Source: a virus. From it: a stretch of DNA of 64,000 bases. The DNA is taken from IMG/VR virus record IMGVR_UViG_3300028558_000027, positions 3,420-67,419 of that record; one strand, given 5' to 3'. Shown here in pieces: positions 21,049 to 60,202 of the stretch. Below the pieces are notes generated by a model that saw only the letters and a list, made by a program, of their open reading frames with translations, was not told the DNA's origin and made no database searches. Each line of letters opens with the position of its first letter. Within the stretch, counting starts at the first letter, position 1. The translations under genes were made by a program, and so were the position numbers.

Positions 21049-21672
21049 ATGATGAGTGACGGGCTGCATCTAAAACGATGTAAGTCGACCTTCTGCACGG
21101 AACAACCGGTCGGAGAGTTCTATAAGAAGGCTGATTCTAAAGACGGATATACATCAAAGTGTAAGACGTGTATCCGTCTCCGCAGTAAGAAGTGGCGAGA
21201 TGCGAATTTAGAGCGTGCCAATAAGGTTCACGCTGAGTGGTATGCGGCGAATGGAGAGATTGCGAAGGCGTCCCGAGTTCGTTGGGCCAAGGCGAATCCT
21301 GAAAAGGTACGTGAGGCGGTTAGAAAGTGGAACGATTCTAACCCGGACGTACTGTTGAGGATCGGTCGGAGGTGGGAGAAGGCTAATAAGCTCCAAAGGC
21401 AGGTCTCGGGACGGGCGTTTAAGCTAAAGAAATATAACCTTACGCCATCTCAATATGACGCGCTACTCGACGCACAGGATGGGCGTTGTGCGATTTGTGG
21501 AAGTGATAGTCCTGGGAGGGGACATGCGCATTTTAGTGTTGACCACTGTCACAAGAGTGGGCGAGTAAGAGGTTTGTTGTGTGGTAATTGTAACGTTGGA
21601 ATCGGATTGTTGGGCGACTGTGCGGAGAGGGTGACGGCTGCCGTCCGGTACCTTGAGGGCGTGAAACTATGA
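21049..21672 (+). CDS. Endonuclease VII-family homing endonuclease
   Basis: CAIC...VDHCH...RGLLCGNCNVGIG; paralogue of 3767-4285. Confidence 0.9.
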   Translation: MMSDGLHLKRCKSTFCTEQPVGEFYKKADSKDGYTSKCKTCIRLRSKKWRDANLERANKVHAEWYAANGEIAKASRVRWAKANPEKVREAVRKWNDSNPDVLLRIGRRWEKANKLQRQVSGRAFKLKKYNLTPSQYDALLDAQDGRCAICGSDSPGRGHAHFSVDHCHKSGRVRGLLCGNCNVGIGLLGDCAERVTAAVRYLEGVKL

Positions 21673-23037: not shown

Positions 23038-23632
23038 AGAGCTGACCGTTGAAGAGTCGGCGTTAGCTAAAATCCTGTCCTCCCTCTCCGATAGAGAGGC
23101 TGGGGCATATCGCTATTTTCTGCGTGCCAAGCAGCCAGAGCTGGCTGCGGAACTGTCTGACGAGCTATTCGTGCTCTTTTGTCAGGGGCGCGACTGCGAC
23201 GAGATCCGAAAGGTCAAGCCAGGTCTTGGCCTGGGCCCTATCGTACACGCTCGAATCAGGGACAAGTGGGACGAGAGGCTGGCGGAATATCAGCGCGGCC
23301 TGGTCCAGAAGGTTCCTGTGTTGGTTCAACAGACGCAGCTGGAATCGGCCGAGTTTCTGACCAGTGTAATGGCTGCGGGTCACATGTTGGTGCAGAAGCA
23401 GATTGACGACTTCATGGCTACCGGCAACAAGGACCATCTGAAGGGCACGTTTCTGGAGAACATGACGCTCGGGCAATATCAAAAAGTGCTGGAGATGCTC
23501 ATGAAAGTCACCGGGCAGGACAGCAAGAAAACGATCAATCACACGGGCGGAATCACGATTGCACCAGCGAAGCGCGTGAGCGGGGCTGATGCTGCGGCAA
23601 TCCTTGATGCGTTGGAGTTGCCGGCGAAGTGA
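23024..23632 (+). CDS. putative terminase small subunit
   Basis: Helical protein overlapping the start of the large terminase; assignment is positional. Confidence 0.55.
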   Translation: MPAGRELTVEESALAKILSSLSDREAGAYRYFLRAKQPELAAELSDELFVLFCQGRDCDEIRKVKPGLGLGPIVHARIRDKWDERLAEYQRGLVQKVPVLVQQTQLESAEFLTSVMAAGHMLVQKQIDDFMATGNKDHLKGTFLENMTLGQYQKVLEMLMKVTGQDSKKTINHTGGITIAPAKRVSGADAAAILDALELPAK

Positions 23633-25527
23633 CAGTCGAAGAGCCCCAGCAATCTGACGACGACCTGAAGCGAAGCGTACTGTTCGTCCCCTGCACGAGC
23701 AAGCGACATCTCCATAGGTGGATCGAGATGTTTTTGGGGCTCGACATTCCGGATTGCATCGTGGATCCGGAGTCGACGTCATCGCCGATGGACATGATTT
23801 ACGAGATCTACTCCAAGGCCCTCGCCAATGACGACGAGACCTTCAGCCGGGTGCTCTACTACGCGGCACGAGATTCGTTCAAGACTATCGCGGCTTCGAT
23901 CATCGAGGTGCTGAGCGTTCTCCACTTGGGGCGCTCCGTCGCGCACATGGCGGCTATCGAGATTCAGAGCCAGAAGTGCGCTCAGTACGTCAAGGATTGG
24001 CTCGGCAAACCGTTCATCAGAGAGTACCTCGTTGGCAACAACAAGGAAATTATCTGGGTGGTCCGGTATGAACATAAAGAGACCGGCCAGAACATCAACC
24101 TGGACACCTTCCAGAAGCTGAGCGAGTCCGACAAGAACCAGTACAAAGAGATCAAGCACTACATCACGATCGTCGTCTGTACGATGGCGGGCGCCAACGG
24201 TGCTCACACGCCTCTGTTCGTCGTCGACGAGGTTGACGTCGTAAGGGATCCGAAAGCCTACGAAGAGTCGAAGTTTATCCCGGCTCCGTACGAAGGCAAA
24301 ATGCCGATTACCGTCCTTACCTCCAGTCGAAAGTTCGCTATTGGGCTGGTTCAGAAGGAGATCGACAAAGCGGCCACGTCTGGCCTCCACATCCGGCACT
24401 GGAACATCATCGACGTAACGGCTGCGTGCCCTCCGTCCAGACACCTGCCGCTTGCTGACAAGATCCCTATCTACGTCAATGACGACGAGATTAGCGCGAT
24501 CAGCGAGGAAGCCTTCGCCAAGCTTGGATCTGAAGAGCAACAGAAGTACGTCAAGACTGAGGGGTATGGAGGCTGCCTCAAGAACTGCCAGCTGTTCGCC
24601 AGCTGCAAGGGCAATCTGGCCACCAGGCAGCTCTCTAAGTCGAGCCTGCTGAGGCCTATTTCTCACACGACCAACCAGTTCAAGACGGCGTCTCTGCCAT
24701 CGGCGATAGCTCAGCTTCTCTGTCGGAAACCGTCTACCGAGGGGATGATTTATCCGAATTTCAGCCGTGAGGTTCACATGCTCACGCCGGCTGAAATGGC
24801 GGAGAGAATCACCGGCGACCCCCATGATGAAAATCTGACGAAGGAACAGCTCATTCAGATCATGAAGGGCTTGGACCTGAAGTGGAACTCGGGCATGGAT
24901 TTCGGGTACACGCACAATTTTGCTGTCGTGACGGGGGCGAACGATGGCTACCGCCTCTTCGTGGTGAACGTGATTGAGAAGCCTGGCCTGGAGCCGTCTG
25001 ACATCGTCGATGAGTGCGAAAAAAATCTCAGAGACCTGGCTCCTAACATTTTTGGCGATCCCGAGAATCCTCAGATGGTCAAGGTACTCCACAAGCATGG
25101 GTTCAACATGCGGAAGTGGAAGAAGACGCCTGGCTCGGTTGTCGGTGGTATCGACACTGTTCGAATGAAATTGCGCCCCACGATGGGCGAGCCTCAGATT
25201 TTCATCCTCAAGGGTGACGAGATGTGTGAGGTCCTGGCCACGCGGTTGGCGAATTACCACTGGAAGCTCGATGCGGCCGGAAATCTCACGAATGTTCCGG
25301 ACGAGGAAGAGGACGACCTCTGCGACGCGATCCGCTACCTGGTAATGAACGTGTTCGGCATCAAGGGGAAGATCTCAGTTCCCAAGGAGACCGACGCTAA
25401 GCAGGCTCAGCCAAAGGGATATACGTTCGAAAATTGGATGGCCAAGACCATCCAGGAGCATGTCGGAGATGCGGTAGCCCAAACCCCTTTGAAGGGGAAG
25501 TCCGGCAACTTCAAATTCGACATGTAG
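23629..25527 (+). CDS. terL: terminase large subunit
   Basis: ARDSFKT Walker A, VVDE Walker B, GMDFG and DDLCDAIRY nuclease motifs. Confidence 0.92.
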   Translation: MTVEEPQQSDDDLKRSVLFVPCTSKRHLHRWIEMFLGLDIPDCIVDPESTSSPMDMIYEIYSKALANDDETFSRVLYYAARDSFKTIAASIIEVLSVLHLGRSVAHMAAIEIQSQKCAQYVKDWLGKPFIREYLVGNNKEIIWVVRYEHKETGQNINLDTFQKLSESDKNQYKEIKHYITIVVCTMAGANGAHTPLFVVDEVDVVRDPKAYEESKFIPAPYEGKMPITVLTSSRKFAIGLVQKEIDKAATSGLHIRHWNIIDVTAACPPSRHLPLADKIPIYVNDDEISAISEEAFAKLGSEEQQKYVKTEGYGGCLKNCQLFASCKGNLATRQLSKSSLLRPISHTTNQFKTASLPSAIAQLLCRKPSTEGMIYPNFSREVHMLTPAEMAERITGDPHDENLTKEQLIQIMKGLDLKWNSGMDFGYTHNFAVVTGANDGYRLFVVNVIEKPGLEPSDIVDECEKNLRDLAPNIFGDPENPQMVKVLHKHGFNMRKWKKTPGSVVGGIDTVRMKLRPTMGEPQIFILKGDEMCEVLATRLANYHWKLDAAGNLTNVPDEEEDDLCDAIRYLVMNVFGIKGKISVPKETDAKQAQPKGYTFENWMAKTIQEHVGDAVAQTPLKGKSGNFKFDM

Positions 25528-25544: not shown

Positions 25545-26525
25545 ATGTCCACCCTTACCGTCATTTCGTCTGCTGTAGCCTATAACGACGACGCAGCTAG
25601 CAGCAACCCTACCCAGTTGCCAATTAATTGGCGGCGCACGAACGTCGGTGTGCCGGTAGATGTGCCCGAGACGACACCCTTCAGAGTCGTTCCTCTTGGA
25701 ACAGCTACTCTGATTAACGGTAGCAGGACGACGACGATCGATGGAACGACGGCGTTTAGCGTGGCCACTAGTGCTCTCGAATCCACGCGCTATCGGATCA
25801 CGGCGACCGGAGGCACAGCACCGGGCTTTCGCACGAACCGCAACCTGGCTTGCAACAATATTGCCCTGACCCTGACCGTCAACTCGAACCTGTCGATGTC
25901 GGTCGCAGCGGGAACGGGCACTCCCTTCAGCGCCGTCCAGGTCGGTGATGTCGTATTCATTCCCGGTACATCTACCGGTGATCCGGCGAGCCCGTTCAAC
26001 CCGCTGAACGAGGGGTATTGGACAGTGTTGTCCTCCGGAAGCGCCTTGATGACTCTGGCAAGGGACCCGTCGGTGGTATTCGCCGGTGCATCTCAGGTGG
26101 TTACCCCTTCCGGGAACTCTTTCATTCAGGCGTTCTCTTCGGACGGCGTCCAGGTCGGAGACACGGTGGAGATCGCGTCTGGATTCGCTGCCCCGGCACT
26201 TCATTCGTATGGAGTCGTGGCGGTCAATCCTCTGTGGGTTGAGTTCGAGAGTACTTCCCCACTGGGAAGCCAGACGGGAATCACCCCCGGCGCCTCTGGC
26301 TTGCTTTTTTACACAGCCTCGAAGCGGTGGCTGCGTATCGAGGCTGACCAAGAGTGCGTGCTTCGCCTGAATGGTGACTCGGGTAACAGCGTTCGTCTCG
26401 AACCCATCATCGCCGGTGACAGGGCGAACGTTGGATGGTTCGAAATCTTCGGATCGGTGTGGCAATTGGTTGTCGTTAACCGTTCCACAGGGGTTCTGAA
26501 CGTCACGATGTTGGCGGCCGAGTAA
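25545..26525 (+). CDS. virion structural protein, beta-rich
   Basis: Starts MSTLTV just after a CGCAATCTT motif; Thr/Ser/Gly-rich; between terminase and portal. Confidence 0.7.
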   Translation: MSTLTVISSAVAYNDDAASSNPTQLPINWRRTNVGVPVDVPETTPFRVVPLGTATLINGSRTTTIDGTTAFSVATSALESTRYRITATGGTAPGFRTNRNLACNNIALTLTVNSNLSMSVAAGTGTPFSAVQVGDVVFIPGTSTGDPASPFNPLNEGYWTVLSSGSALMTLARDPSVVFAGASQVVTPSGNSFIQAFSSDGVQVGDTVEIASGFAAPALHSYGVVAVNPLWVEFESTSPLGSQTGITPGASGLLFYTASKRWLRIEADQECVLRLNGDSGNSVRLEPIIAGDRANVGWFEIFGSVWQLVVVNRSTGVLNVTMLAAE

Positions 26526-28705
26526 TGGCGACGCCCAAGGTCATCAATATGAAGCCGGCGCCTCTGGCGAAGACCGCCAGGGATCTGGTTGTGTCCAAAT
26601 ATGCGAGTGACGATGTGCCGCGGAACCGTCGGCAGGTCATCTTTATCGCGGACGAGGTAGAGAAGCAGGAGCCGGAAGAGACCGTCAAGCAAGAAAGTAC
26701 GGAGATTTCGAGCCTTTCGAAGTCGATTATTAATCACCTGAACGGCCCCAAGGGTTCCATCGAGCGATTGGCGTTTGAGGTCGATCCTACTGATAGTAAA
26801 TTTGCCTGCCTCTATGAGCAGAAGCTGAGGCTTCTCCCGGACGACGTTCTAAAGAGGGTGGCGATCCAGGATGATTTGGTGGCCAGCATCGCCATGGTGC
26901 GGTCGAATCAGACCTCCGCTCATGGAGAGCCTAGGGCAGAGCGTTTTGCGACCGGCTTCGTCCTCGAACCGAATCCTGGTGTAGTGGACCGTCTGACGCC
27001 GGCAGAAAAGGCGGAGCTGGACACTCAGATCGCAAAGGCCGTCAAAAAGTTTGCGACCTGCGGTTCGACGAAAGGATGGGACGACGAGGACAAATGCTCT
27101 CTCGCGACCTGGCTTTCGATGTCTACGCGAAACGCGATCATCAACGGCAAGATCGCGACCGAAATTATTTGGGCTCAAGATGCCGCCGGGAACGACGTGT
27201 TTCACTCATTCCGGGCCATCGACGCCGGCACTATTTACAGAGCCGCTAAGCAACAGGCTCAGGCAGAGTCGGTTCGTGAGACCGCCCTGAGACTGCTTGA
27301 GCAGATCAAGAATAAAGAGCTTGAACCAGAAAAATACAAGCAGGACCAGTACTCCTGGGTTCAGGTTATCAACGGGACTCCGAGACAGGCCTTCACGTCG
27401 AAGGAATGCGTTGTCTACAACTTCTATCCCGTAACCGACGTCGAGCTGAACGGATATCCGGTCACGCCGATCGATACGATGATGAGTGCGGTCACGACGC
27501 ACATCAACATCACGGCCCATAACCGAGTGTATTTCCAGACGGGCCGGGCGACCCGCGGGATGCTCGTCATCCAGAGCGACGACGTCGATGAGTCGGTGAT
27601 CGGGCGCATCAAGCAGCAGTTCAACGCGTCCATCAACAGCGTCCAGAACGCGTGGCGCATGCCGGTGTTTGGGGTCGGTAAAGAAGACTCCGTCTCGTGG
27701 TCCTCGATCGATAGCGGCGCGAGAGACATGGAGTTTCAGTACCTAACCGATATGAACGCACGCGTTATCTTTTCTGCGTTCCAGATGTCCCCCGAAGAGG
27801 TGCCCGGATGGGCATATCTTTCGAAGGGTACAAACAACCAGGCCCTGTCGGAGTCGAATAACGAGTACAAACTTGAGGCGGCTCGTGACGTTGGTATCCG
27901 TCCTCTTCTTACGAAGTTCCAGGATTTTCTCAACAGCTCCATTTTCCCGCTGATCGACGCCAAGCTGGCGGAGGTGTGTAAGTTCAAGTTCGTCGGATTA
28001 GACGCAGACACGCCTGAGAAAGAGTCCGTCCGTCTGCAACAAGATATACCCGTTCACATGACCTACGACCAGGTCATGCGAAAGGTCGAGAAACAGCCAA
28101 TCGGTAAGGAATTCGGCGGAGAGTTTCCTCTTCAGCCCCAGATCGGCGCTATCCTGGACGCTCATTTCACCGTTGGGGAAATCGAGGAACATTTCATGGG
28201 TAGAGTGGGGGCGTCCCAAGACCCGGCTCTCGCCTACCGACGAGATCAGTTCTGGTTCTCGTTTCAACAGCTTCAGCAGCAAGCACAGCAGGCGCAAATG
28301 CAGCAACAGCAGGCTGCTCAGCAGGCTCAGCAAGGGGGAGGGGACCCGAATTCGTCTCAGACTGAGCCGGCAGGCGTGTCGGATGAGCAGTCGCCTGGCG
28401 GCGCGGCCCCAGGTGGAGATGACAAGACGAAGCAGCAGCAGTCCGACCAGGCTGTTCAGGCGAACGCCGAAGGTAAGGGAAACGTCGACGGGACGGACAC
28501 TACGGATCTGACTCGTTCGCTCGATCAGGCGATTGGAGTGTTGACGAAGTCTGAGGACCAGTTGCCTCCGTCGAAACGCCGGATTTTAGCTCATCACAAG
28601 ATGACCATTAAGCAGGCATTGGACGGCTGGGAGACTGACCTGATGGCGACGACCAAGGAGATCTTGGCAATCGCTGAACACCACTCTCCCGCTAAGGGGA
28701 AGTAA
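26525..28705 (+). CDS. portal protein
   Basis: YFQTGRATRGML, DMEFQ, FQMSPEEVPG and GIRPLL portal motifs; Gln-rich C-terminal extension. Confidence 0.9.
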   Translation: MATPKVINMKPAPLAKTARDLVVSKYASDDVPRNRRQVIFIADEVEKQEPEETVKQESTEISSLSKSIINHLNGPKGSIERLAFEVDPTDSKFACLYEQKLRLLPDDVLKRVAIQDDLVASIAMVRSNQTSAHGEPRAERFATGFVLEPNPGVVDRLTPAEKAELDTQIAKAVKKFATCGSTKGWDDEDKCSLATWLSMSTRNAIINGKIATEIIWAQDAAGNDVFHSFRAIDAGTIYRAAKQQAQAESVRETALRLLEQIKNKELEPEKYKQDQYSWVQVINGTPRQAFTSKECVVYNFYPVTDVELNGYPVTPIDTMMSAVTTHINITAHNRVYFQTGRATRGMLVIQSDDVDESVIGRIKQQFNASINSVQNAWRMPVFGVGKEDSVSWSSIDSGARDMEFQYLTDMNARVIFSAFQMSPEEVPGWAYLSKGTNNQALSESNNEYKLEAARDVGIRPLLTKFQDFLNSSIFPLIDAKLAEVCKFKFVGLDADTPEKESVRLQQDIPVHMTYDQVMRKVEKQPIGKEFGGEFPLQPQIGAILDAHFTVGEIEEHFMGRVGASQDPALAYRRDQFWFSFQQLQQQAQQAQMQQQQAAQQAQQGGGDPNSSQTEPAGVSDEQSPGGAAPGGDDKTKQQQSDQAVQANAEGKGNVDGTDTTDLTRSLDQAIGVLTKSEDQLPPSKRRILAHHKMTIKQALDGWETDLMATTKEILAIAEHHSPAKGK

Positions 28706-29479
28706 GTGGGTGCTATCATCCTGGGCCAGAAAGCCAGGAAAGCGATTGGCCTGGCGGTGGATAAATTATTTGACCGTGTGAAGGCGCGCTATCTTGGTCC
28801 GTCGTCTATCCAAGGGCGTAGCGACAAGCAGATCAAGATCGGCTATGTCCCCCAACTCACTCTCCAGGGGCTCTATGAGACTGCCGCGCGCGAGGAGTAT
28901 ACGAGGCCGGATCCACAGTCGGTGCAGCACCTAGCGGACATGGCGAGCGGGTATCTAGACCTGGCTCGTGACAAGGCGAAGCTGAAAGCCGTCCACGCTG
29001 TTGAGTCGTGTCTTCGCGATGCCGACGCTTCTGGCGTCAAAACAGACCTTGAGACGGTTCTTGGCGGTCACCTGGCTGACGTATGGGCTTCTGCGGCGAC
29101 CGAGGTGAAGAAGATCGTAGACACCGAAGCTACGAAGGCGAGAAACCTCGGGACCCTTGAGGGGATCACAAAGGTGAACGCGGCGAGCGGCATCGAGGAC
29201 CCCGTCGTTTTCTTTGTGACCGTGAGAGACAGTGATCGGTGCGAGGAATGCACCAAGATCCACTTGCTCCCGGACGAGGTTACGCCGAGGGTGTGGTACC
29301 TGAGCGAGGTCCAGGCCGGCTACCACGAGCGCGGAGTCGACAAGCCGTGTCTCGGAGGGCTGCATCCTAGCTGCCGCTGTAGCCTCGTGACGCTCATGCC
29401 TGGGTACGGGTTCGACAAGGCCGGTCTCGTGACCTACCGTGGGCAGGGGCACAACGAGATGGCGGCTCAGCGCGGATAA
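28706..29479 (+). CDS. MuF/SPP1 gp7-like head morphogenesis protein
   Basis: RCEEC and LHPSCRC motifs; follows the portal gene. Confidence 0.8.
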   Translation: MGAIILGQKARKAIGLAVDKLFDRVKARYLGPSSIQGRSDKQIKIGYVPQLTLQGLYETAAREEYTRPDPQSVQHLADMASGYLDLARDKAKLKAVHAVESCLRDADASGVKTDLETVLGGHLADVWASAATEVKKIVDTEATKARNLGTLEGITKVNAASGIEDPVVFFVTVRDSDRCEECTKIHLLPDEVTPRVWYLSEVQAGYHERGVDKPCLGGLHPSCRCSLVTLMPGYGFDKAGLVTYRGQGHNEMAAQRG

Positions 29480-30723
29480 TAAACCCAGCGAGTCTTGCCG
29501 CAGTCCCATATGCGGTCCCAGCCGTTGCGGGACATTATATCCCATTCGGTGTCTTCCGTGGAGCCGCCATATGTCGCCAACGCGACATCTCGTCTCCAGT
29601 TGAACCTATGTATCCGCCGCGTTTGATCGCCCGGCCTAAAATACCAATAAGTGGGTAGTCCTACTCGGTCTTTCACAAATCCGGCTGCTTTATACATAGC
29701 ACCGACACTCCAGCGATTGTCTGAATAGCTGATAACCGCTCTACAGCTAGTCTGTCTCAAGAAGGCGTGGATTAGTCGCGATACTCCACCTGCTATTGCA
29801 AGCTCCGGAGACACACAGTATCTATTGAGTTCCCAAGTTTCTTCCGGAAGCTCCATTCGTTTGGAACTTCCAACTTTGGTAAAACTGGCAGCAGCCACCG
29901 TTTTGCTGTTGAAGGACAGAGAGTAGGTAACGCCAGGAGGCGCACCCTGTAGGTGATGTTCGGAAATAAAAGACCGACCTTCATTCGGTACGACAGAACA
30001 CTCTCTAGCTCCGATGGAGGTCTTTTGACCAAATATGGACGCAAGATACCCCTTTACAGCATCCCGATTACTAACCCATTCGTCTTCGAAGATTGTAAGA
30101 AGTCTGATGCCTGCGCTTTCGCACTCTTTGAATTTGTAGAAAGAGGCCAGTTTGTGTTTTCCTGCCGCCAGAGATTGCTTCTCTCCGTGCCAGTAGAGGC
30201 CATCGAATTCTATTGCTAGACGCTTGTCAGGTATCCAGATATCCAGCTCAAGTGGTGCTATTTGCGTTCGGTCGTGTTGGATTACGTCACACTCGGATAT
30301 TGACGATACGAAGAAGAACAAATCGGTCTGTAGGAATGACTTTGCACATCCACACGAGCGGGTGTTGCCCGAAAGTAAGGCGCCCGAGGTCACCGTCTTG
30401 GAACTTCCGCAGGGAACGCATTCCACATCCCAGCGCGCCTTCCCAGCTGGAGTCGACCCGTTTCGTTTTTCGACCTTAAGAGCTGTGAAGGTTATTCCCT
30501 TTAGGTCGCGAGTTCGTCTATCTGATCTAGAGCGTCGCCCTTCGCATCCGCAAGACACAGTTCTCTTTAAGTTTCCTGCCCTAACTTCTACGACGGTTTG
30601 ATTGGGGCAATCGCAGATGCAGATCCAGATCGTATCTCGGCCCTTGCTCTCTCCTCTGTGAAGAACGGTGAGATGTCCGTTCTTCTGGCCCGTTTTGTCT
30701 TTGAGTGGCCGGCCAGTTTTCAT
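29467..30723 (-). CDS. homing endonuclease-like protein (Zn-binding repeats, PD-(D/E)XK/Vsr-like nuclease, Mom-like GNAT)
   Basis: Two W.C.C...SCGC repeats; ELDIWIPDKRLAIEFDGLYWH; HHLQG, ELNRYC, SYSDNRWSVG and IWDCG motifs. Confidence 0.75.
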   Translation of the reverse strand: MKTGRPLKDKTGQKNGHLTVLHRGESKGRDTIWICICDCPNQTVVEVRAGNLKRTVSCGCEGRRSRSDRRTRDLKGITFTALKVEKRNGSTPAGKARWDVECVPCGSSKTVTSGALLSGNTRSCGCAKSFLQTDLFFFVSSISECDVIQHDRTQIAPLELDIWIPDKRLAIEFDGLYWHGEKQSLAAGKHKLASFYKFKECESAGIRLLTIFEDEWVSNRDAVKGYLASIFGQKTSIGARECSVVPNEGRSFISEHHLQGAPPGVTYSLSFNSKTVAAASFTKVGSSKRMELPEETWELNRYCVSPELAIAGGVSRLIHAFLRQTSCRAVISYSDNRWSVGAMYKAAGFVKDRVGLPTYWYFRPGDQTRRIHRFNWRRDVALATYGGSTEDTEWDIMSRNGWDRIWDCGKTRWVYYPR

Positions 30724-30735
30724 CGGATATCTATG

Positions 30736-30809
30736 AGCCCTCCGTCGGATTCGAACCGACAACCTACTGAGTACAGGTCAGTTGCTACCGCCAGTTGAGC
30801 TAGAAGGGC
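30736..30809 (-). tRNA. tRNA-Thr(UGU) with atypical anticodon loop, no encoded CCA
   Basis: Cloverleaf: GCCCTTC/GGAGGGC acceptor stem, ACTGA-CCTGTAC-TCAGT anticodon arm, GTCGG-TTCGAAT-CCGAC T arm. Confidence 0.88.
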
Positions 30810-31703: not shown

Positions 31704-34700
31704 GTGTCTTCTACAGGAATGCTGCTGGACGGAATTTTTGCGTCAGAAGCCTGCGATACGTCTGGTGAGCGAATCATCATCAAAGGTCTTGATATCACTG
31801 AGCTTGAGGAAGGTCGCGGAATCGCGAACTACGAGCACAAGGGTGAAGACAAAGGCAATGGTGAGGAGATTGTCGGCCGAATCGTCTACGCCAAGAAAAT
31901 ATTCGGTGAAGACGACTGTGAGACCGAACGCCAGTTGGACTGCTGGAAGAAAACCAAGCTCCCTCTGCTCTATGGCGTGGTGCGTCTCTACGACGGTGCC
32001 GGTCACGAAGGAGCCAAGGCTTTGGCCGCCGCGATCCGCGACCACGTGGCCAACGACGAGAAAATCCTGCTCCGCTACTCGATTGAGGGCAGCACGCTGA
32101 ACAAAGAAGGCAACGAGCTGCGTGAGTGCGTGGCTCGTCGAGTGGCTCTGACCTGGAAGCCCTGCAATCGGAGCTGCGATACCGGTCTTTTGGAGGACCC
32201 CAACGCACCTGAGGGTTTCGAAAAGCAGCACGTCACCCGAGACCCTTTGTCTTTCCTCGATTCGAAAAAGTCGGAGTTCGAAGATCCGCTCTACGCCCGT
32301 CTGGGCGGGTCTGTGACGACTGAAGGAAATCCGATTCTGGATGGAACCGACCTCGCTAAGGCTTATACGGCCGGCAGCACTGCGTCTGCACCCGGGTCAT
32401 TGGTTGGAACTGCAGCTCTACAGCGCGAAGACAGTGGTCTGAAGAAGAAAAAGGCGGCTGCCCTAGCTGCGATCCGCGATTACTCGGGGCTGTTCGATCG
32501 CGACAAATTCAAGACGTTCGCAAAAATGCGGATGCCCGAGGCTTCTGACGAGTTCTTGGATCACTTCGCGAATCTTGCCGAGGACTACCACGTCAAGCGC
32601 AAGCAGTTGGCGAAGAAGGAAAGTCCGACTGTTGCGCCGAAGGCCAAGGTAAAGAAGCCGGCAGCGAAGACGCCTGCTAAAGCTGCCTCCAAGCCGGCAA
32701 AAGCTGCTCCACCGAAGGAAAAGCAGACTGTCATCGCCGGCACCGAGCCCTCTGAGAAGGCGACGATCCGTGGAGTTCCGATCGAGCCGAACCCGACCGT
32801 CAAGAACCCTGTGTTCGACGAGGACAAGGGGATTCTGCACACGTCGTTTGGGTCCTTCCCTCTGCATAGGCCAGAAGCCGAGCACTTCAACAAGATCCTT
32901 TCGGACCCGAAGGTTGAACAGGTCCACAACCAGGCGATGGCCGGTTGGGTGAAGGTTCACAAACTCCTCAAGGAAGGTCGCCTTCCTCCTGAGGTCGTGA
33001 TGCATGCAGCGTTGTTCGCTAATTTGAGCCCAAATACGCCCGTTCCGATGCAGGAGCTGATGTATGGGCACCTTGTCGATTCCATGCGCCACACTGGAGC
33101 GGACGCGCGGGAGCCTGGGTTCTCCGACAAGACCAAAGCCGATTGGGTTAGTCGAGACGGCGGTAAGAGCTATCCGGAGAACACGCGCGAGTTCTTCACC
33201 AACCATCCCGGTATTCACTTGAAGAACGCTAGTAAGCTCACCGGTAGGTCGGCCGGCGAAGTGGGCGGGTTCATGTTGGCAAACAACAAAATGACCAACA
33301 TGGATCATTATCACGAAAACCACCACCACTTGATGGAGTTGGTCAACAGGAACCGCGAGAACGTGCGGGCGTCTGCCAACGAGCTGATGCAGCACAAATA
33401 CAAGGCTGCACTCTGGGACAATCGTCGCCAGACAGCGATTTCGAAGGACAAGCCAGATATCGGCCCATACGCTGGTCCCGCGGTCCCTGGCCTCGCTCCT
33501 AAGACGACCCGCTACATGATGGGTATGATCGGTGGCGGCAACGTGTTCGTTCCCGATACGCACATGGTTCGTCACCTAGCCGGCCTAGAGCAGGGCAAAG
33601 ATCCTCAGACCAATGACGACGTCAAGAACCTGATGTGGGACGAGAGAAACAGCCACATTCTCGACGGCATCGATCGCTGGTACGCGAAGAATCATCCGGC
33701 GGTTCAGCACATGCTGCAGCATCCGACCTGGGGTAAGCATTTCGAGAAGCCCGAGGATGCGATTTTCCCGGCCTTCTGGAAGCACTGGATCGGCATCGCT
33801 CCTGACGAGCGATCGCGTGGGATGAGAAACACCAACGCAACAGAGGGCACGACTCACGAACCCTTCTGGAATGCGATTGATCCGTTCGTTGAGGGTGAAA
33901 TCAACAAAGCGGAGGTCGATGAGACCCTGCCTCAGCGTACAGCGCGAATCCACGCTCAGTACATCCGTGACTACGGTGAAGTGCCGGCGTCGATGTTGTA
34001 TCACGCCTACTTGCTTCCCCACCTGCTGGATGCCGCGGAACAGAGGGCCAAGCGCGGCTCCACGTTGACCTTCATGGCGAAGTCGGACGCGCTCGACATC
34101 TCGTTGAGGAAGGCGATCGCCGAGTTCGAGAGTCATCCGACGTTGTTGGAGCCCGAGATGCCGTCGGTCCACAAGGTCCATATGAAGATCAAGGGCCAGC
34201 ACCACCCCGCTGGGCGTTACATGATCATCGGAAACAATCTCCGTCACTTGGAGGACTACCACGGGTTGATGGACAAGTTCTTGCCCGAGGGACCGGTCAC
34301 GGAGCAGACGATTTCTAGAATCCACGGTTTGAAGATGTCGCCCCACCTCTCCATCGAGGAGGACCCGATCCCAACGCAGCCGGAGCCCGACACAAACAAC
34401 GCCCATCCGATCGTCCTACCCTCGGCTCCGCCCGCTCCTAGGAAGCCCTCGGTGTTTCATTACACACGTGTGGGTCACGACCGTCCTCATACGCTGGAGG
34501 TCCAGAACGGCGCCTATACGCTCGACGGTAAGCGTATGTCTTACCCAGAAGTTCAAACTGTCGTCGCCAACGTGAGGTCAGGCGCAGGAAAGATTCGCTA
34601 CAAGACTAGTGAGGTAGCTAACCAAATAAAAAAGATGGAAGACCTCTTCGAAACATACCTGGGCAAGGCGGAAGAAGAAGAGAACGCCATGGATTTCGCC

Positions 34701-35414
34701 ACGATGCTGGCCCATATGCGGGCGGCAGAGGCCGCGGGCCACCTTCCCAAGGGAACTAGCGCTGCTGCAACGCGCCACGGTTACGAAGACTCCATGATCC
34801 CGGGCATGGGCAACAAGGCTGCTTGGAACGACTTTCATGCTCAGAAGAAGCCTGGCGTCTATGTCGGTCTAGACGGTACAGATTTCTCGGCGATCAATAA
34901 CTCGCATGGCCACGCTGTAGGAGATCAGGCCATCAAGGCGTTTGGGGGCGCTGTCAAGGCGGCGGCGGAAGAGGCTGCGCCGGGAGCCTACAAGAGCTTT
35001 CGTCCAGGCGGCGACGAAATCAATGTGCACCTCCCCTCACATGAACACGCAGCTCGCTTCGCGCGTGCTCTGCATCAGAGACTGGAGGCCATGCCGGCAA
35101 TCGGCGGCGTCCACAAGCTGGCAATGGGTATGGGATTTGGGACCACACCTGAAGAGGCCGACAAGGCGCTCTACAAAGCAAAGGACCAGAAGTATCTGCC
35201 TGGTCAAGATCGTATCCCACAGCGAGAGCGCAAGAGAGCGTTCCCGATCGGTCAAGCGCCCAACATGGCCCATAGCCTGGTTCCGGGACACGAAGGCGCT
35301 ATTCCTTTACCAAGCGCTAATTCAGCGGCGGTTCACCAGTTGAAGACACCGGAACCGAACGGAGCTATGCCTGAGGCTCCGAAGTTGCCGCACTTGCCTG
35401 CAGCGGCTGCTTAA
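31704..35414 (+). CDS. prohead protease fused to HhH-GPD glycosylase-like and GGDEF-like domains
   Basis: Protease motifs NYEH, YSIEG and ALTWKPCN; PGLAPKT...VPDTHMVR; LDGTDFSAINNSHGHAVGD...RPGGDEI. Confidence 0.85.
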   Translation: MSSTGMLLDGIFASEACDTSGERIIIKGLDITELEEGRGIANYEHKGEDKGNGEEIVGRIVYAKKIFGEDDCETERQLDCWKKTKLPLLYGVVRLYDGAGHEGAKALAAAIRDHVANDEKILLRYSIEGSTLNKEGNELRECVARRVALTWKPCNRSCDTGLLEDPNAPEGFEKQHVTRDPLSFLDSKKSEFEDPLYARLGGSVTTEGNPILDGTDLAKAYTAGSTASAPGSLVGTAALQREDSGLKKKKAAALAAIRDYSGLFDRDKFKTFAKMRMPEASDEFLDHFANLAEDYHVKRKQLAKKESPTVAPKAKVKKPAAKTPAKAASKPAKAAPPKEKQTVIAGTEPSEKATIRGVPIEPNPTVKNPVFDEDKGILHTSFGSFPLHRPEAEHFNKILSDPKVEQVHNQAMAGWVKVHKLLKEGRLPPEVVMHAALFANLSPNTPVPMQELMYGHLVDSMRHTGADAREPGFSDKTKADWVSRDGGKSYPENTREFFTNHPGIHLKNASKLTGRSAGEVGGFMLANNKMTNMDHYHENHHHLMELVNRNRENVRASANELMQHKYKAALWDNRRQTAISKDKPDIGPYAGPAVPGLAPKTTRYMMGMIGGGNVFVPDTHMVRHLAGLEQGKDPQTNDDVKNLMWDERNSHILDGIDRWYAKNHPAVQHMLQHPTWGKHFEKPEDAIFPAFWKHWIGIAPDERSRGMRNTNATEGTTHEPFWNAIDPFVEGEINKAEVDETLPQRTARIHAQYIRDYGEVPASMLYHAYLLPHLLDAAEQRAKRGSTLTFMAKSDALDISLRKAIAEFESHPTLLEPEMPSVHKVHMKIKGQHHPAGRYMIIGNNLRHLEDYHGLMDKFLPEGPVTEQTISRIHGLKMSPHLSIEEDPIPTQPEPDTNNAHPIVLPSAPPAPRKPSVFHYTRVGHDRPHTLEVQNGAYTLDGKRMSYPEVQTVVANVRSGAGKIRYKTSEVANQIKKMEDLFETYLGKAEEEENAMDFATMLAHMRAAEAAGHLPKGTSAAATRHGYEDSMIPGMGNKAAWNDFHAQKKPGVYVGLDGTDFSAINNSHGHAVGDQAIKAFGGAVKAAAEEAAPGAYKSFRPGGDEINVHLPSHEHAARFARALHQRLEAMPAIGGVHKLAMGMGFGTTPEEADKALYKAKDQKYLPGQDRIPQRERKRAFPIGQAPNMAHSLVPGHEGAIPLPSANSAAVHQLKTPEPNGAMPEAPKLPHLPAAAA

Positions 35415-35724
35415 GTTTTCTACACTTAATGCATATCTTTTTGTTGCCGTAAAAGGCAACGAACAACGGCAGTAGTTCGCCGCATGTGCCAATGCACGTG
35501 CGAAGCCCGGACTCCTCGTTGCATTTGACACACACCTTGTTTGTATCAAGGCGCCTGTGACGTAGGCATTGGGCGCAGATTGTGTCGGGGAAGAGCCTCT
35601 CAAACCGAGCCTCTGAACGACACGTCTTGCACCGCGACGTTATTTGCCGTGGCCGGTCCGTGGCAAACGCCTGGTGGAAGTCGTTGGCGTCTTTGTTGTC
35701 GTTGCATTTCGAGCAGGTGGGCAC
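35365..35724 (-). CDS. multi-CxxC zinc-finger protein
   Basis: About six Cys pairs; probable GTG start at 35724 after a CCTAATCTT motif variant. Confidence 0.6.
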   Translation of the reverse strand: MPTCSKCNDNKDANDFHQAFATDRPRQITSRCKTCRSEARFERLFPDTICAQCLRHRRLDTNKVCVKCNEESGLRTCIGTCGELLPLFVAFYGNKKICIKCRKLKQPLQASAATSEPQA

Positions 35725-35882
35725 TGAACCCAAGATTAGGGTTATTGCCCAAAAGTTGTTCCGTACTAAATCGCAATCTTCTGAATTGCAAAGAGAACTG
35801 CCCCGCAAGGGGACATTGAAATGGTGAGCACCTGAGTGCTCCCGTTACGTAACGGCACGAAACACACAGGAGATTTCAATAA

Positions 35883-36335
35883 ATGTCTACATCGTATAAA
35901 GCACTGGCCCTCAGCGCAACGCTCGCGGACGAGCTGCGCAAGCGCCTCTCGGCTACTCTGTCGGCGACCCTCGTTGAGGGGTTCGACACCAATGGTAATC
36001 CGACGATCGCGATCGGCACCGGCAGCCCCGGCGCCAAGAACGCGTTCATCCGCACGCAGCCGATTTCGTGGCCGCTGGCGAAGGACATCGTTGGCAACAC
36101 CTCGCAGGTGTATGCCCCGAGCGTCATTCAGCTCGCAACCGAGACGGATTCCGGCTCGGACATCCTGACTCCCGTCGAGCTGCTTGCGATCCTTAGCGCG
36201 ATCCAGCTGAAGGGCGCGAAGATCGAGTGGTACCAGTCGACCAACGGCACCGCCCCGGTCGTCGCCACCATCACCGGCACCCCGGTCGCGACGTTCGACG
36301 CCGACCTCTACTGGAACATGCAGGCGTCGTCGTAA
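35883..36335 (+). CDS. virion protein (head decoration candidate)
   Basis: Strong AGGAG ribosome-binding site, biased codon usage, first gene of the capsid operon. Confidence 0.7.
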   Translation: MSTSYKALALSATLADELRKRLSATLSATLVEGFDTNGNPTIAIGTGSPGAKNAFIRTQPISWPLAKDIVGNTSQVYAPSVIQLATETDSGSDILTPVELLAILSAIQLKGAKIEWYQSTNGTAPVVATITGTPVATFDADLYWNMQASS

Positions 36336-36371: not shown

Positions 36372-37262
36372 ATGAAGAAAACCTACAAAGACAGTGAGCT
36401 TCAGGATCTCCTGAAGGCTGTTGAGACCGGCATTGCCGATCTCGTGAAGACCGAGCAAGAAGCTCTGGCAAAGGCCAACCCCGGCGAGGAAACGTCGGAT
36501 GAGGCTCCTGCAGACGATTCGGCAACGTCCGATGCTCCTGCAGACGGTGGCGATTCCGAGAGCGCTCCTCCGGCTTCGGATGGTCCTCCGGCTGCTGCTG
36601 CCTCGGCGCCCCCGGCGACCGATGCTCCTGCAGCAGCACCTCCGGCTGACGCAGCGGCGTCGGCGGACCCGGCTGCTGACCAAAGCGCGGATCCCGCTGC
36701 TTTGCAGGCTGAGTACGCTCAGCTTCCTCCCGAGGACCTGAAGGCTCACTACATCGCGTGCAAGGCAGCTCTGTTTGCTGTCATGGGCGCGGGCGCCGGT
36801 GACCCTGGCATGGACCCCGGCATGGATGCAGGGGCACCCCCGGCACCTGCTGCAGCTCCTCCGGCACCCCCGGCTGCTTCTCCCTCGGCTCCTCCCACCC
36901 TCAAGGGCGAGAAGAGCGCAGAGATCGGTCCTCCGAACGGTGAGAACCCCCTGAACAAGGCTCAGGCCGAAATCGTCGTGCTCAAGGAGCAGGTCGAGAA
37001 GGCAAACAAAGGGATGAGCGATCTGATGACCGTTGTTGAGACGGTTCTTGGGAAGCCCCGTCGCAAGGCAATTACCGGTCTCGGTGCTGCCGTTGCAAAG
37101 AGTGAGCAGAAGACGGTTCTCACGCGAGAGCAGGTCAAGGCGAAGCTGAAGACGCTCGTGTCGTCCAAGCCGCTCAATAAATCGGACCGCGAACTCGTTT
37201 GCAGATTCGACCTCGGAACAGTCAGCGTTGAGCAGGTTGCCCACTTGCTCACGGATAAGTAA
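36372..37262 (+). CDS. putative capsid scaffolding protein
   Basis: Acidic, Ala/Pro-rich with a coiled coil, directly upstream of the capsid gene; many x-x-K-[AS] sites. Confidence 0.7.
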   Translation: MKKTYKDSELQDLLKAVETGIADLVKTEQEALAKANPGEETSDEAPADDSATSDAPADGGDSESAPPASDGPPAAAASAPPATDAPAAAPPADAAASADPAADQSADPAALQAEYAQLPPEDLKAHYIACKAALFAVMGAGAGDPGMDPGMDAGAPPAPAAAPPAPPAASPSAPPTLKGEKSAEIGPPNGENPLNKAQAEIVVLKEQVEKANKGMSDLMTVVETVLGKPRRKAITGLGAAVAKSEQKTVLTREQVKAKLKTLVSSKPLNKSDRELVCRFDLGTVSVEQVAHLLTDK

Positions 37263-37325: not shown

Positions 37326-38747
37326 ATGAACGACGCACTCGAACGAATCAATGACCTGATCAAGGCGATGGAAGGTGGCTCGTATAACGCAGCCCCCGGC
37401 CAGCTGGTTCAGGGTGGGGCCCTTCAAACAGAGGACCTGAGCAACACGATGCACACTGTGACCTTCTCGGAAGAGCACATCAAGCTGCAGAAGATGCTCA
37501 AGGTCGAGACCTGCAAGTCGACTCTCGCGCAGTTCGACCGCCAGCTCAGCTACGGTGAGTTTGGTGGTTCGGCTCAGCTGGAGGGGCATATCGGTCAGGA
37601 AGAGACCTCGGACTTCGTCCGTGTGGTCGTTCCGATGTGCTTCTACTCGCACGTTCGTCGGGTGACGATCGTTGCGAACCTGGTGGACACCGTCGACGGC
37701 GTGAAGGCCGAAGAGCGGGCTGCCTCGGACGCGGCGCTCAAGCTCGCTGGCGACATCGAGTTCGACTGCTTCCGCGGTCTCTCGGACTTCAGCAACGCTG
37801 GCGTGTTCGATGGTAACCCGAACACCACCCCTGCGCTGCCGAACATGCACGGTCTGGGCCTCCAGATCCGTCAGTCGGACACGCAGTACCAGGCGAAGGA
37901 CCTCATGTTCTCCGAGTTCGGCTCGGACGACACGGTCGTTCTCTCGGCTGGTGGCAACCTGGCCCAGGAGATGCTGGAGGACGCAGCCCTTCGCAGCTCG
38001 CTGAACTTCGGTTCGGCGGACCGCCTCATTGTCGACCCGACTGTCAAGTCGGCGTACAACAAGCTGGCTTACGGCAAGGAGCGCATCATCCTGGCCGGCA
38101 GCCCGCAGGAGTCGACCGGCGCGGACCTGCGTAAGCAGTTCGTGTCGACCGGCACCGTGACGGTGGAGTCGAGCCAGTTCCTCCGTGGCAAGAGCAAAGC
38201 CGCTCGCGCCCGCAGCAACGGCCCCCTGGCCCCGACGTCGATCGCGACTTCGGTCCCCAACACGTCGACAACCGACGCAGCGGCACCGACGGCGTTCCTC
38301 GCCAATCAGGTCTACATCTACGCGGTGACGACCTGCAACGAGGTCGGCGAGAGCCCGAAGACGAACACCTACTCGGTGACCATCGCGACGTCTGCCGACA
38401 AGGTGGCTCTGACCATCACCCACGCAGCGACGACCAACCGCTACTTCAATGTTTACCGCACGGCTCCTGGTGGCGCTGCGGGTACCGAGAAGTTCATCGG
38501 TCGCGTCAAAGCGTCGACTCCCGGTTCGGGCACCACGGTGTTCACCGACCTCGGCAACAAGTTGCCGGGCTTCGTCACCGGCTACCTCCTGGACAAGGGC
38601 GAGAACCTGGCGCTCAAGGAGCTGGCTCCGTACAGCCGCCTGAAGCTGGCGGTCACCGAGCTGTCGCAGCCCGAAGCTTTCTACAGGTTTGTCAGCCTCG
38701 CGGTCAAGGAGCCGCGCAAGCTGGTCCTCGTCGACAACCTGATCTAA
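37326..38747 (+). CDS. major capsid protein
   Basis: 473 aa; IKAM...GALQTEDL N-terminus resembling SPO1/Twort-type capsids; FN3-like insertion (YIYAVT, YFNVYR); followed by a terminator. Confidence 0.9.
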   Translation: MNDALERINDLIKAMEGGSYNAAPGQLVQGGALQTEDLSNTMHTVTFSEEHIKLQKMLKVETCKSTLAQFDRQLSYGEFGGSAQLEGHIGQEETSDFVRVVVPMCFYSHVRRVTIVANLVDTVDGVKAEERAASDAALKLAGDIEFDCFRGLSDFSNAGVFDGNPNTTPALPNMHGLGLQIRQSDTQYQAKDLMFSEFGSDDTVVLSAGGNLAQEMLEDAALRSSLNFGSADRLIVDPTVKSAYNKLAYGKERIILAGSPQESTGADLRKQFVSTGTVTVESSQFLRGKSKAARARSNGPLAPTSIATSVPNTSTTDAAAPTAFLANQVYIYAVTTCNEVGESPKTNTYSVTIATSADKVALTITHAATTNRYFNVYRTAPGGAAGTEKFIGRVKASTPGSGTTVFTDLGNKLPGFVTGYLLDKGENLALKELAPYSRLKLAVTELSQPEAFYRFVSLAVKEPRKLVLVDNLI

Positions 38748-38832: not shown

Positions 38833-39399
38833 GTGAAGACCTGTTCAAAGTGTGAGACTCCCAAAGAAGTAGGTGAATTTAACAAGCGGGCCGCTAGTCC
38901 CGATGGGCGTCAACCAATATGTAGGCAATGTCAGAGAGCAAAAGATACGGTCTACTCACGAGATAATAGTGAAAAGAAGTCGGCGCGTGCCACTGCTTGG
39001 ATTAAGGAAAATCCCGAGCGCTTTCGCGCCACCCGCAAGGCATATCAGAAAAGGAAGACGCAGACGGACCCGAACTATCGTCTAGCTAGGCTCCTTCGTT
39101 CCCGCCTATACAACGCACTGCAGGGTAGATTCAAAGCCGGCTCCGCTGTTGACTCACTTGGCTGCACTGTCCCCGAGCTTCGGGACCATCTTGAGAAACA
39201 ATTCCAGCCCGGCATGACCTGGGAGAACTATGGCAAGTGGCACATCGACCACGCCAAGGCGTTGGTCACGTTCGATCTAACGGATGCTGGCCAATTCGCC
39301 CAAGCCTGCCACTACACCAACCTGCGCCCGCTGTGGGCCACAGAAAACATCGTCCTGGGAGGAAAGCTGCGGCATTTCAAACGAGTTGTCCCGTCCTAA
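38833..39399 (+). CDS. HNH homing endonuclease
   Basis: CSKC and CRQC; WENYGKWHIDH...CHYTNLRPLWATEN. Confidence 0.85.
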   Translation: MKTCSKCETPKEVGEFNKRAASPDGRQPICRQCQRAKDTVYSRDNSEKKSARATAWIKENPERFRATRKAYQKRKTQTDPNYRLARLLRSRLYNALQGRFKAGSAVDSLGCTVPELRDHLEKQFQPGMTWENYGKWHIDHAKALVTFDLTDAGQFAQACHYTNLRPLWATENIVLGGKLRHFKRVVPS

Positions 39400-59560: not shown

Positions 59561-60202
59561 GTGCTACGAGTAGCGCCTTTACGAAAAGACGAGGATACAG
59601 CCCCGCAGGGGAACCTCTATCGTACTCCGCCTGCTCCCGTAGCCGATCATCCGTTGTTCTCAGGTTCCAACTCGGTTGGTCTCATGACTGCCGAGGCTCC
59701 GATGTATCCGGCGAAGGACAGCGGTGGCAACAAAGGCCTAGAGCAAAAGCTAACCACTATGGGTTTGAGGTTTGAGCCCACCACGGGCTCTTACGGCGGC
59801 GGTCTAGAGCACAGCTACATCATTCATGGTCCGACCAGGGAGCAGATGTACCAGCTGGGTCATGAGCACGGTCAGCATGCCGTTATATACAGTCAGAACG
59901 GCAATCACGAATTACTGATGACCCACGGGCCCGATGCGGGCAAATACCATCCGTCCCTGCCCGTTATTCGTTACTCGAAAGACGCTCCGGAAGACTATTA
60001 CACCGCTCTTCCTGGTCGCGGTCACGTCACGCTTCATTTTGCTCAGGACAAGCTTCTAGACTCGCCTGTCAAGCACACGATGCCAGCGCACGCTGGCGGA
60101 CCTGCAGGGCATCCGGCGCAGCAACAGCTGCAAGCGATGAAGCACGAGATCGCCACCGGCCTACTGGCGATCCTCCGCAAGGCGCAGAAGGAGCTGAGCT
60201 AA
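59561..60202 (+). CDS. SAM lyase-like (T3 SAMase/DUF3293-like) protein
   Basis: GLMTA...N..L...L...GSY...EHSYII...LGHEHGQHAVI...YYT pattern. Confidence 0.55.
   Translation: MLRVAPLRKDEDTAPQGNLYRTPPAPVADHPLFSGSNSVGLMTAEAPMYPAKDSGGNKGLEQKLTTMGLRFEPTTGSYGGGLEHSYIIHGPTREQMYQLGHEHGQHAVIYSQNGNHELLMTHGPDAGKYHPSLPVIRYSKDAPEDYYTALPGRGHVTLHFAQDKLLDSPVKHTMPAHAGGPAGHPAQQQLQAMKHEIATGLLAILRKAQKELS

Follow-up and report, generated by a model that had tools for sequence, protein, structure and literature searches.

Why should a phage join a second-messenger cyclase to the protease that matures its head? This question is raised by an open reading frame (ORF) of 1236 codons in a 64,000-nucleotide stretch of viral DNA (positions 3,420 to 67,419 of the IMG/VR virus record IMGVR_UViG_3300028558_000027; the whole stretch is referred to as the window). 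The encoded protein, which we call the polyprotein, begins with a putative prohead protease and carries a GGDEF domain of the diguanylate cyclase type near its C-terminal end. An earlier note on this DNA had pointed out the fusion and suggested that an injected cyclase could alter a surface or biofilm state controlled by cyclic di-GMP (c-di-GMP), or jam immune signaling. The record comprises 67,419 bases with an estimated completeness of 41%, and the window represents part of the genome of a large Mx1-like phage of the myovirus kind. Myxococcus phage Mx1 (169.6 kb) is the sole phage in the GenBank collection with a similar protein (43% identity), and the major capsid protein (MCP) of the window is 56.9% identical to that of Mx1 and shares 25-28% identity with its counterparts in SPO1-like and other large myoviruses. 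We found that the fusion is shared by many uncultured relatives, and we tentatively propose that the protease carries the cyclase into the phage head as cargo.

Translation of nucleotides 34851-35189 in the polyprotein frame gives PGVYVGLDGTDFSAINNSHGHAVGDQAIK...FRPGGDEI...ADKALYKAKDQ, which is the signature that the earlier note had quoted for 34850-35190. The Pfam GGDEF model (PF00990) matches residues 1040-1163 with 41.6 bits (E 1.4e-10), well above its curated cut-off of 23.8; judged by its sequence, the match is far beyond chance. NCBIfam models of diguanylate cyclases gave weak matches to the same stretch, and the PHROGs matches were to four function-unknown families only, in the C-terminal part of each family profile. 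When the PDB was searched with the GGDEF domain (phmmer) and with a full-length family profile of 43 sequences, all of the matches were diguanylate cyclases, and the domain was assigned to the GGDEF fold. In HMMER alignments with solved cyclases, Asp1057 falls on the first Asp of the D-x-D-x-F-K motif (DVDDFK, DADHFK, DLDHFK), Asn1065 and Asp1074 fall on their N and GD, FRPGGDEI falls on RxGGEEF, and ADKALYKAK falls on ADxALYxAK. The second Asp of the D-x-D, which had been described as replaced by Gly, is Thr1059; that description was one position off, Gly1058 being the middle x.

We assessed the conservation of the active site in 70 sequences (the 67 GGDEF-bearing relatives described below, the separate cyclase of Mx1, and the window protein, which is present twice, as P0001 and P0005). 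Asp1057, the metal-binding Asp of D-x-D-x-F-K, and Asn1065 are found in 70/70. Asp1074 is found in 61/70 (8 Asn, 1 Thr), Lys1097, Arg1100, and Lys1160 in 69/70 each, Lys1163 in 67/70, Gly1102, Gly1103, and Asp1104 in 69/70 each, and Glu1105 in 68/70. The GG[DE]E core, which is part of the GGDEI at residues 1102-1106 of the window protein, is intact in 67/70 (48 with the form GGDEF), and the second position of the D-x-D is Asn in 54/70 and Thr in 15/70. We take the roles of these residues, such as the guanine contacts of Asn1065 and Asp1074, to be those established for PleD and WspR. Invariant columns make up 17% of the GGDEF segment, the highest share among the six segments of the polyprotein (13.3% for the protease), at a mean identity to the window protein of 54.4% (57.6% for the protease). 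The possibility raised in the earlier note that the domain might be catalytically dead and not conserved thus does not apply. The canonical RxxD product-inhibition site (R and D at positions -9 and -6 relative to the GG, five residues upstream), which is common among GGDEF cyclases and does not define them, was found in 0/67 of the sequences with an intact GG[DE]E, and the window protein has PGAY at this place. On the evidence of these residues, the domain is probably a real, active, GTP-using cyclase. A homodimer prediction for residues 820-1236 scored 0.01 against a mark of 0.42; this gives no answer and weighs neither way on pairing.

The N-terminal domain was identified by its predicted fold. 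An AlphaFold2 model of residues 1-190 built with 87 aligned relatives had a predicted local distance difference test score (pLDDT) of 91.6 and a predicted template modeling score of 0.88. The Foldseek matches listed for it were herpesvirus proteases and T4 gp21, besides a few low-ranked MlaD/MCE chains; the E-values were weak (8e-3 to 3e-2), with probabilities of 0.9-0.98 among the top-ranked protease matches. Asp18, Glu22, His45, His101, and Ser126 are invariant (87/87 sequences). The gene lies in a run consisting of the large terminase, the portal, an opposite-strand homing-endonuclease-like gene, the polyprotein ORF, a 150-codon ORF, a scaffold-like protein, and the MCP; the portal is thus upstream and the scaffold-like and MCP genes are downstream, and the order is the same in Mx1. 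Because of the fold, the invariant His and Ser, and the gene position, we accept the domain as a predicted prohead protease, which agrees with the label "putative prohead protease" in the Mx1 record. The fusion of the GGDEF domain to a prohead protease, as claimed in the earlier note, is therefore upheld by fold and gene position, and by no sequence model. The domain shares this fold and place in the head gene order with T4 gp21 and herpesvirus assemblin, and its invariant His and Ser are candidate counterparts of their catalytic residues. Unlike T4 gp21 (212 residues, no cargo), with which it has no detectable sequence similarity, the polyprotein adds about 1050 residues that include enzymes.

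When a word index was searched with the complete protein, 119 relatives were obtained in addition to the window's own copy. Many of them are from contigs of 150-200 kb. Onto these relatives we mapped six segments of the window protein by phmmer (E 1e-3). GGDEF was found in 67/119 relatives, and 66 of those 67 also have the protease in the same chain. The full architecture is present in 47 of the 119. Another 14, of 700-800 residues, have the protease, linker, S module (the segment before the cyclase), and GGDEF and lack the 490-residue middle domain (the C-terminal tail was detected in 12 of these and not in 2); six are smaller GGDEF-bearing variants, and 52 are without GGDEF. By sequence comparison, the fusion prevails across a sizable set of uncultured Mx1-like phages (66/119) and is no one-off. 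The survey of related phage proteases for which the earlier note had called thus showed its observation to be correct and more general than was thought. Given this frequency, and the phage GGDEF genes annotated elsewhere, the fusion is less exceptional than the earlier note had supposed.

The GGDEF-less relatives usually end in another 250-450 residues. In some, Mx1-like C-termini among them, this C-terminal region matches the PI3/PI4 kinase catalytic loop: against a cut-off of 27.1, the PI3/PI4-kinase matches were 37.6 bits for P0038, 34.9 for P0108, and 30.7 for P0095, and the scores of P0049 and P0054 were slightly under it. P0038 is one relative that has both the GGDEF and the kinase-like part. 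Other GGDEF-less relatives have DUF3293 (fused past the middle domain in P0120 and P0121), a GNAT domain, or a middle domain interrupted by inteins. Varied enzyme-like domains (PI3/PI4-kinase-like, DUF3293, GNAT) on one anchor are the pattern of "polyvalent" delivered proteins. The window also encodes a DUF3293 protein elsewhere (Table 1).

The S module and the cyclase occur apart from the protease as well. In an exhaustive HMMER search with residues 820-1236 (417 residues), 828 proteins out of 1.84 billion representatives were matched at E 0.001, and 149 were matched at E 1e-30; a protease domain was present in 42 of these best 149 S-GGDEF representatives at 50% identity (the window's own excluded). 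Mx1 has three consecutive genes (WNM70322-WNM70324), encoding the 1239-residue "putative prohead protease," a hypothetical protein of 150 residues, and a 243-residue "nucleotide cyclase." The parts are homologous to those of the polyprotein and have the same order and place; unlike in Mx1, they are united in one frame in the window. The cyclase (WNM70324) matches Pfam GGDEF with 38.4 bits. The 150-residue protein resembles the S region of the window protein by eye, and phmmer at E 1e-3 made no link; the Mx1 protease protein ends in about 380 residues that have no counterpart in the window. Among seven IMG/VR loci, L002 is fused like the window, three end too early to tell, and L003, L005, and L007 have a GGDEF coding region downstream of the polyprotein ORF, which in L005 and L007 precedes an ORF with a capsid-type N-terminal peptide. 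In the informative unfused loci (Mx1/L001, L003, L005, and L007), the cyclase is thus just downstream of the protease gene in 4/4, and it precedes the capsid gene in Mx1, L005, and L007.

A second link between the polyprotein and the capsid is a duplicated peptide. Residues 10-37 of the MCP (DLIKAMEGGSYNAAPGQLVQGGALQTED) align with residues 216-243 of the polyprotein, shortly past the protease domain (BLASTP E 2e-6), and in the Mx1 polyprotein the counterpart of MCP residues 1-38 is at residues 227-267 (BLASTP E 5e-9); the pair of MCP and polyprotein peptides is also present in L002, L005, and L007. The motif ALQAE recurs across scaffold-like proteins, and AL[QK]xE has four occurrences in the window's 68 ORFs, with one each in the polyprotein, the scaffold-like protein, and the MCP. 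When the relaxed motif [LIVMA][QKRTS]xE was sought in at least half of 43 aligned sequences, Glu242 alone qualified (35/43). The shared peptide is a likely candidate for a cleavage or capsid-targeting site: it may be recognized by the protease, or it may serve co-assembly with capsid subunits, and either function would place the downstream part of the polyprotein inside the prohead. It offers a concrete candidate for a protease recognition site in a little-studied phage group.

Taking these domain identities, their conservation, the frequent fusion, the gene position, and the duplicated peptide together, we propose, with a probability of about 0.45, that the polyprotein is the prohead protease of an Mx1-like large myovirus and carries a head-packaged diguanylate cyclase cargo that lacks feedback inhibition. 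That so many uncultured relatives have the fusion suggests that the head of the phage contains the cyclase on its way to the next host. The entire chain would be drawn into the prohead, as this assembles, by its protease domain and its capsid-like peptide. During maturation, a cut would be made by the protease past Glu242, within the conserved ALQxE motif that the polyprotein has in common with the MCP N-terminus and the scaffold-like protein. The freed part (243-1236, about 994 residues), comprising linker, middle domain, S module, and cyclase, would be retained in the head with the DNA and ejected with it on infection. Once GTP was available, the GGDEF domains would pair and make c-di-GMP free of product inhibition, and c-di-GMP would be raised in the host from the first minutes. 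This second messenger governs motility, pili, matrix, and development in many bacteria, and motility, pili, exopolysaccharide, and development would be reset. The steps differ in how firmly we hold them: the cyclase is somewhat more likely than not to be located inside the prohead or head, and its ejection and early action in the next host are possible, with the odds somewhat against them. The interpretation offered in the earlier note is partly supported, namely in the GGDEF domain with its conserved active site, in the covalent joining to the protease, and in the second palm cyclase (mCpol).

Several points weigh against this proposal. The presence of the protein, or of its cyclase part, in the virion and its ejection are steps that we infer, and the cleavage site is a candidate identified by motif sharing. 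Once T4 heads have matured, gp21 degrades itself and the fragments exit the head, so a cargo attached to a protease could just as well be lost to digestion. The assignment of the protease depends on its predicted fold and on where the gene lies: no protease family was matched in Pfam, PHROGs, or NCBIfam, the PDB profile search gave no protease chain and no match for residues 1-370, and when the family alignment was compared by hhalign with the T4 gp21 sequence alone, the probability was 1.45%, which is not significant. In the cyclase, Ser1062 takes the place of the Lys in the D-x-D-x-F-K motif (45 of the 70 sequences have Lys here, 19 have Ser, and 5 have Arg), which could lower activity; this residue is conserved in the GGDEF family, and we do not claim that it is indispensable. 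A protease domain is lacking from 107/149 of the S-GGDEF representatives, which are mostly 350-480 residues long and some of which are clearly fragments from short contigs, indicating that fusion is not required for the function of the module. Finally, the only pointer to a host is the kinship with a Myxococcus phage, to which this protein is 43% and the MCP 57% identical.

The main rival explanation, which we regard as unlikely, is that the cyclase acts late, in the cytoplasm of the producing cell before or during assembly, where it might block superinfection, motility, or development, and that its entry into the prohead is incidental or a means of disposal. The gene is in a late head operon with no internal promoter-like site: when we looked for a promoter or terminator that would split the polyprotein ORF, no promoter-like sites were present on the plus strand between 31000 and 37400, the counts being near the shuffled expectation. 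The predominance of free-standing S-GGDEF representatives also fits a late role, and the missing RxxD site would suit any unregulated use. However, a late role leaves unexplained both the repeated fusion to a protease that functions in the prohead only and the fixed place between the protease and the scaffold and MCP genes, and the capsid-like peptide points to the capsid interior.

An active palm cyclase could also make some other cyclic di- or oligonucleotide, as some GGDEF enzymes make cyclic GMP-AMP, and its product could be a decoy or competitor directed against the cyclic-oligonucleotide-based antiphage signaling system (CBASS), type III CRISPR, or Panoptes-like systems, alongside a phage mCpol. 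We consider this improbable. Evidence in its favor is that the window, as the earlier note had recognized, does encode a second palm cyclase: the N-terminal part of a 797-residue protein matches the Pfam model of mCpol (minimal CRISPR polymerase) with 41.8 bits against a cut-off of 26.4, and a GNAT acetyltransferase domain follows at residues 583-655. According to the available parts of two reports, bacterial mCpol makes decoy cyclic nucleotides (PMC12657218, PMC11974786), and it is a matter of speculation that a phage mCpol could replenish the decoy nucleotides of Panoptes-like defenses. An island with CBASS and type III-B CRISPR stops Mx4, whereas Mx1 is resistant to it, for which the authors, in the portion of the paper available, suggest extra countermeasures in the larger Mx1 genome (PMC11506125). 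The variation at the position of Asp1074 in 9/70 sequences (8 Asn, 1 Thr) would also accord with another product.

A further possibility, which we consider very improbable, is that the GGDEF domain is non-catalytic. It would serve the prohead core through its structure or by binding nucleotides, and would then be broken down or retained as an inert protein of the head interior. Degenerate GGDEF domains that merely bind nucleotides are common in bacteria, and the Lys-to-Ser change at 1062 and the 3/70 members without an intact GG[DE]E fit such a role, but the near-invariance of metal-, base-, and phosphate-contacting residues at only about 54% identity is hard to explain without catalysis.

If the cargo proposal is extended to the relatives, the Mx1-like prohead protease could be a general loading dock for effectors, in which cargo that is fused to it or encoded next to it is packaged, cut at the copy of the capsid peptide, and injected; the cargo would comprise the S-GGDEF cyclase, the PI3/PI4-kinase-like domain, DUF3293, and GNAT. 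We offer this joint reading as a conjecture that is rather unlikely to hold in full. If it were true, the GGDEF cargo would be the first known virion-delivered diguanylate cyclase, and a flood of c-di-GMP at entry into the (probably myxobacterial) host could freeze motility, pili, or development or disturb nucleotide-based immunity. To our knowledge, the known means by which phages tamper with c-di-GMP are limited to small peptides and genes of prophages. A cyclase in the capsid-assembly machinery, kept in well over a hundred sequence clusters, would be a new form of delivery of a second-messenger enzyme, and service as a carrier would be a new use of a prohead protease. Mx1 is culturable on a laboratory Myxococcus strain (M. 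xanthus DK1050, used in PMC10720576 and PMC11506125) and carries the same genes, so the idea is directly testable.

The polyprotein combines known kinds of protein (a GGDEF cyclase, a prohead protease, and a polyvalent phage protein) in what seems to be a new arrangement. In comparison with bacterial GGDEF cyclases (PleD, WspR, DgcB, and GcbC), it has no sensor or receiver domain and no RxxD site, has Ser for the motif Lys, and has its cyclase joined to a virus capsid protease; it is also distant in sequence from cellular GGDEF domains, with only 828 of the 1.84 billion representatives reaching E 0.001. T4 Alt and the T4 internal proteins are a precedent for an enzyme that is packed in the head and ejected, with the difference that they have a short N-terminal targeting peptide, which is removed by gp21, and no fusion to the protease. 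The T4 record describes Alt as "carried in the phage particle."

The closest parallel in architecture is provided by the phage polyvalent proteins, in which, as in the polyprotein, each chain has unrelated enzyme domains in sets that vary between relatives; the available part of the paper describing them predicts delivery linked to DNA and lists GGDEF among their domains (Iyer et al., 2017; PMC5512222). The GGDEF domains in that part are in architectures unlike that of the polyprotein, for example with SNF2 ATPase, methylase, and ART domains, and a prohead-protease anchor with GGDEF is not mentioned there. GGDEF genes have been annotated in temperate Bordetella and Pseudomonas siphoviruses (Vojvodinavirus and Yuavirus), according to the accessible text of PMC8471281; these are small free-standing genes, outside the head module, and are thought to act from the prophage. 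Peptides of Pseudomonas phages (YIP) raise c-di-GMP by activating the host cyclase YfiN, as described in the available portions of two papers (PMC8085984; PMC11461919), and have no location in the head module. Several phage GGDEF domains in BFVD, including that of Bordetella phage CN1, match the family model, and the best BFVD match was a 396-residue S-GGDEF protein of an uncultured phage (E 4.7e-21). Our literature search, which covered open-access main texts, revealed no paper that links a prohead protease to GGDEF or describes a diguanylate cyclase in virions. The words cyclase, protease, and GGDEF have no occurrences in the Mx1 genome paper (PMC10720576), GGDEF, diguanylate, c-di-GMP, and cyclase are absent from the main text of a 2026 preprint on myxobacterial viruses, and GGDEF appears solely in the reference list of a jumbo-phage review (PMC7824862).

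The polyprotein is encoded by a single ORF (Table 1). It may start at a GTG at 31704 or an ATG at 31719, and the database copy P0005 begins at Met6. The AlphaFold2 model of the S module has a pLDDT of 91.5; the module gave no match in the ESM Atlas, and fold searches were occupied by the GGDEF domain and returned no match to an S fold. It accompanies GGDEF in most relatives, whether fused or not, and was undetected in 19/149 of the top database representatives. The first part of the C-terminal tail was modeled with high confidence as belonging to the cyclase fold. The middle domain, which is missing from the short relatives (700-790 residues), had no Pfam match even at E 10 and no PHROG match. 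Two candidate identities were considered for it and not confirmed: a likeness to the HhH-GPD glycosylase signature (GLAPKTTRY...VPDTHMVRHL) was negative in Pfam, PF00730 finding nothing in the record, and a match to the viral DUF7178 in the ESM Atlas (0.91, with 158-168 shared features) was unconfirmed by Pfam. In the relatives P0070, P0098, and P0041, inteins sit inside the middle domain, which suggests that it contains an important active site.

Table 1. Positions in the window of the polyprotein, its parts, and other genes mentioned in the text
Feature	Position	Strand	Remarks
Polyprotein (P0001)	31704..35414	+	single ORF, 1236 residues; protease-anchored
Prohead protease domain (predicted), residues 1-190	31704..32273	+	His45 (31836-31838) and Ser126 (32079-32081), invariant
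Copy of MCP N-terminal peptide, residues 216-243	32349..32432	+	DLAKAYTAGSTASAPGSLVGTAALQRED; ends ALQRE-D
Middle domain, residues 371-860	32814..34283	+	family unassigned; K600, D618, H620, and R623 invariant
S module, residues about 820-1005	34161..34718	+	two small beta-rich subdomains and long helices into the cyclase
GGDEF domain, residues 1006-1170	34719..35213	+	Pfam match 1040-1163; Asp1057 at 34872-34874, Asn1065 at 34896-34898, Asp1074 at 34923-34925, GGDEI at 35007-35021
C-terminal tail	35214..35411	+	first part with conserved AHSLVPGxEG; Pro-rich end variable
150-residue ORF	35883-36335	+	no family match
Scaffold-like protein	36372..37262	+	acidic, Ala/Pro-rich; ALQAE motif at residue 110
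MCP	37326..38747	+	phrog_752, E 2.7e-48
Large terminase	23629-25527		with portal, marks start of head module
Portal protein	26525..28705	+	with large terminase, marks start of head module
Homing-endonuclease-like gene	3767-4285	-	
Homing-endonuclease-like gene	21049-21672	+	
Homing-endonuclease-like gene	29467-30762	-	
Homing-endonuclease-like gene	35365-35808	-	50-base overlap with 3' end of polyprotein ORF
Homing-endonuclease-like gene	38833-39399	+	
Chaperonin, Cpn60/TCP-1 type	13482-15254	-	Pfam 104.5 bits
NUDIX protein, 1010 residues	43166-46198	+	N-terminal NUDIX domain, Pfam 69.5 bits
mCpol-GNAT protein, 797 residues	53957-56350	+	
DUF3293 protein	59561-60202	+	Pfam 27.0 bits, cut-off 25

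The scaffold role of the gene upstream of the MCP gene is suggested by its composition and position, and family searches with its product gave no match. The 150-residue ORF lies with the polyprotein on one side and the scaffold-like gene on the other, and an ORF of similar size is found at the matching place in Mx1. In the structural gene region, the 1010-residue protein has its NUDIX domain at the N-terminus, a further enzyme domain on an apparent virion protein, and Mx1 has a longer homologue at the same place. Residues 338-688 of the mCpol protein match a large Mx1 protein annotated "NUDIX hydrolase." The phage also encodes a chaperonin of its own, and homing-endonuclease-like genes (HNH/Mom-like, Lar-like zinc ribbon, and endonuclease VII) are dispersed across the head and replication modules, one of them overlapping the polyprotein ORF on the opposite strand.

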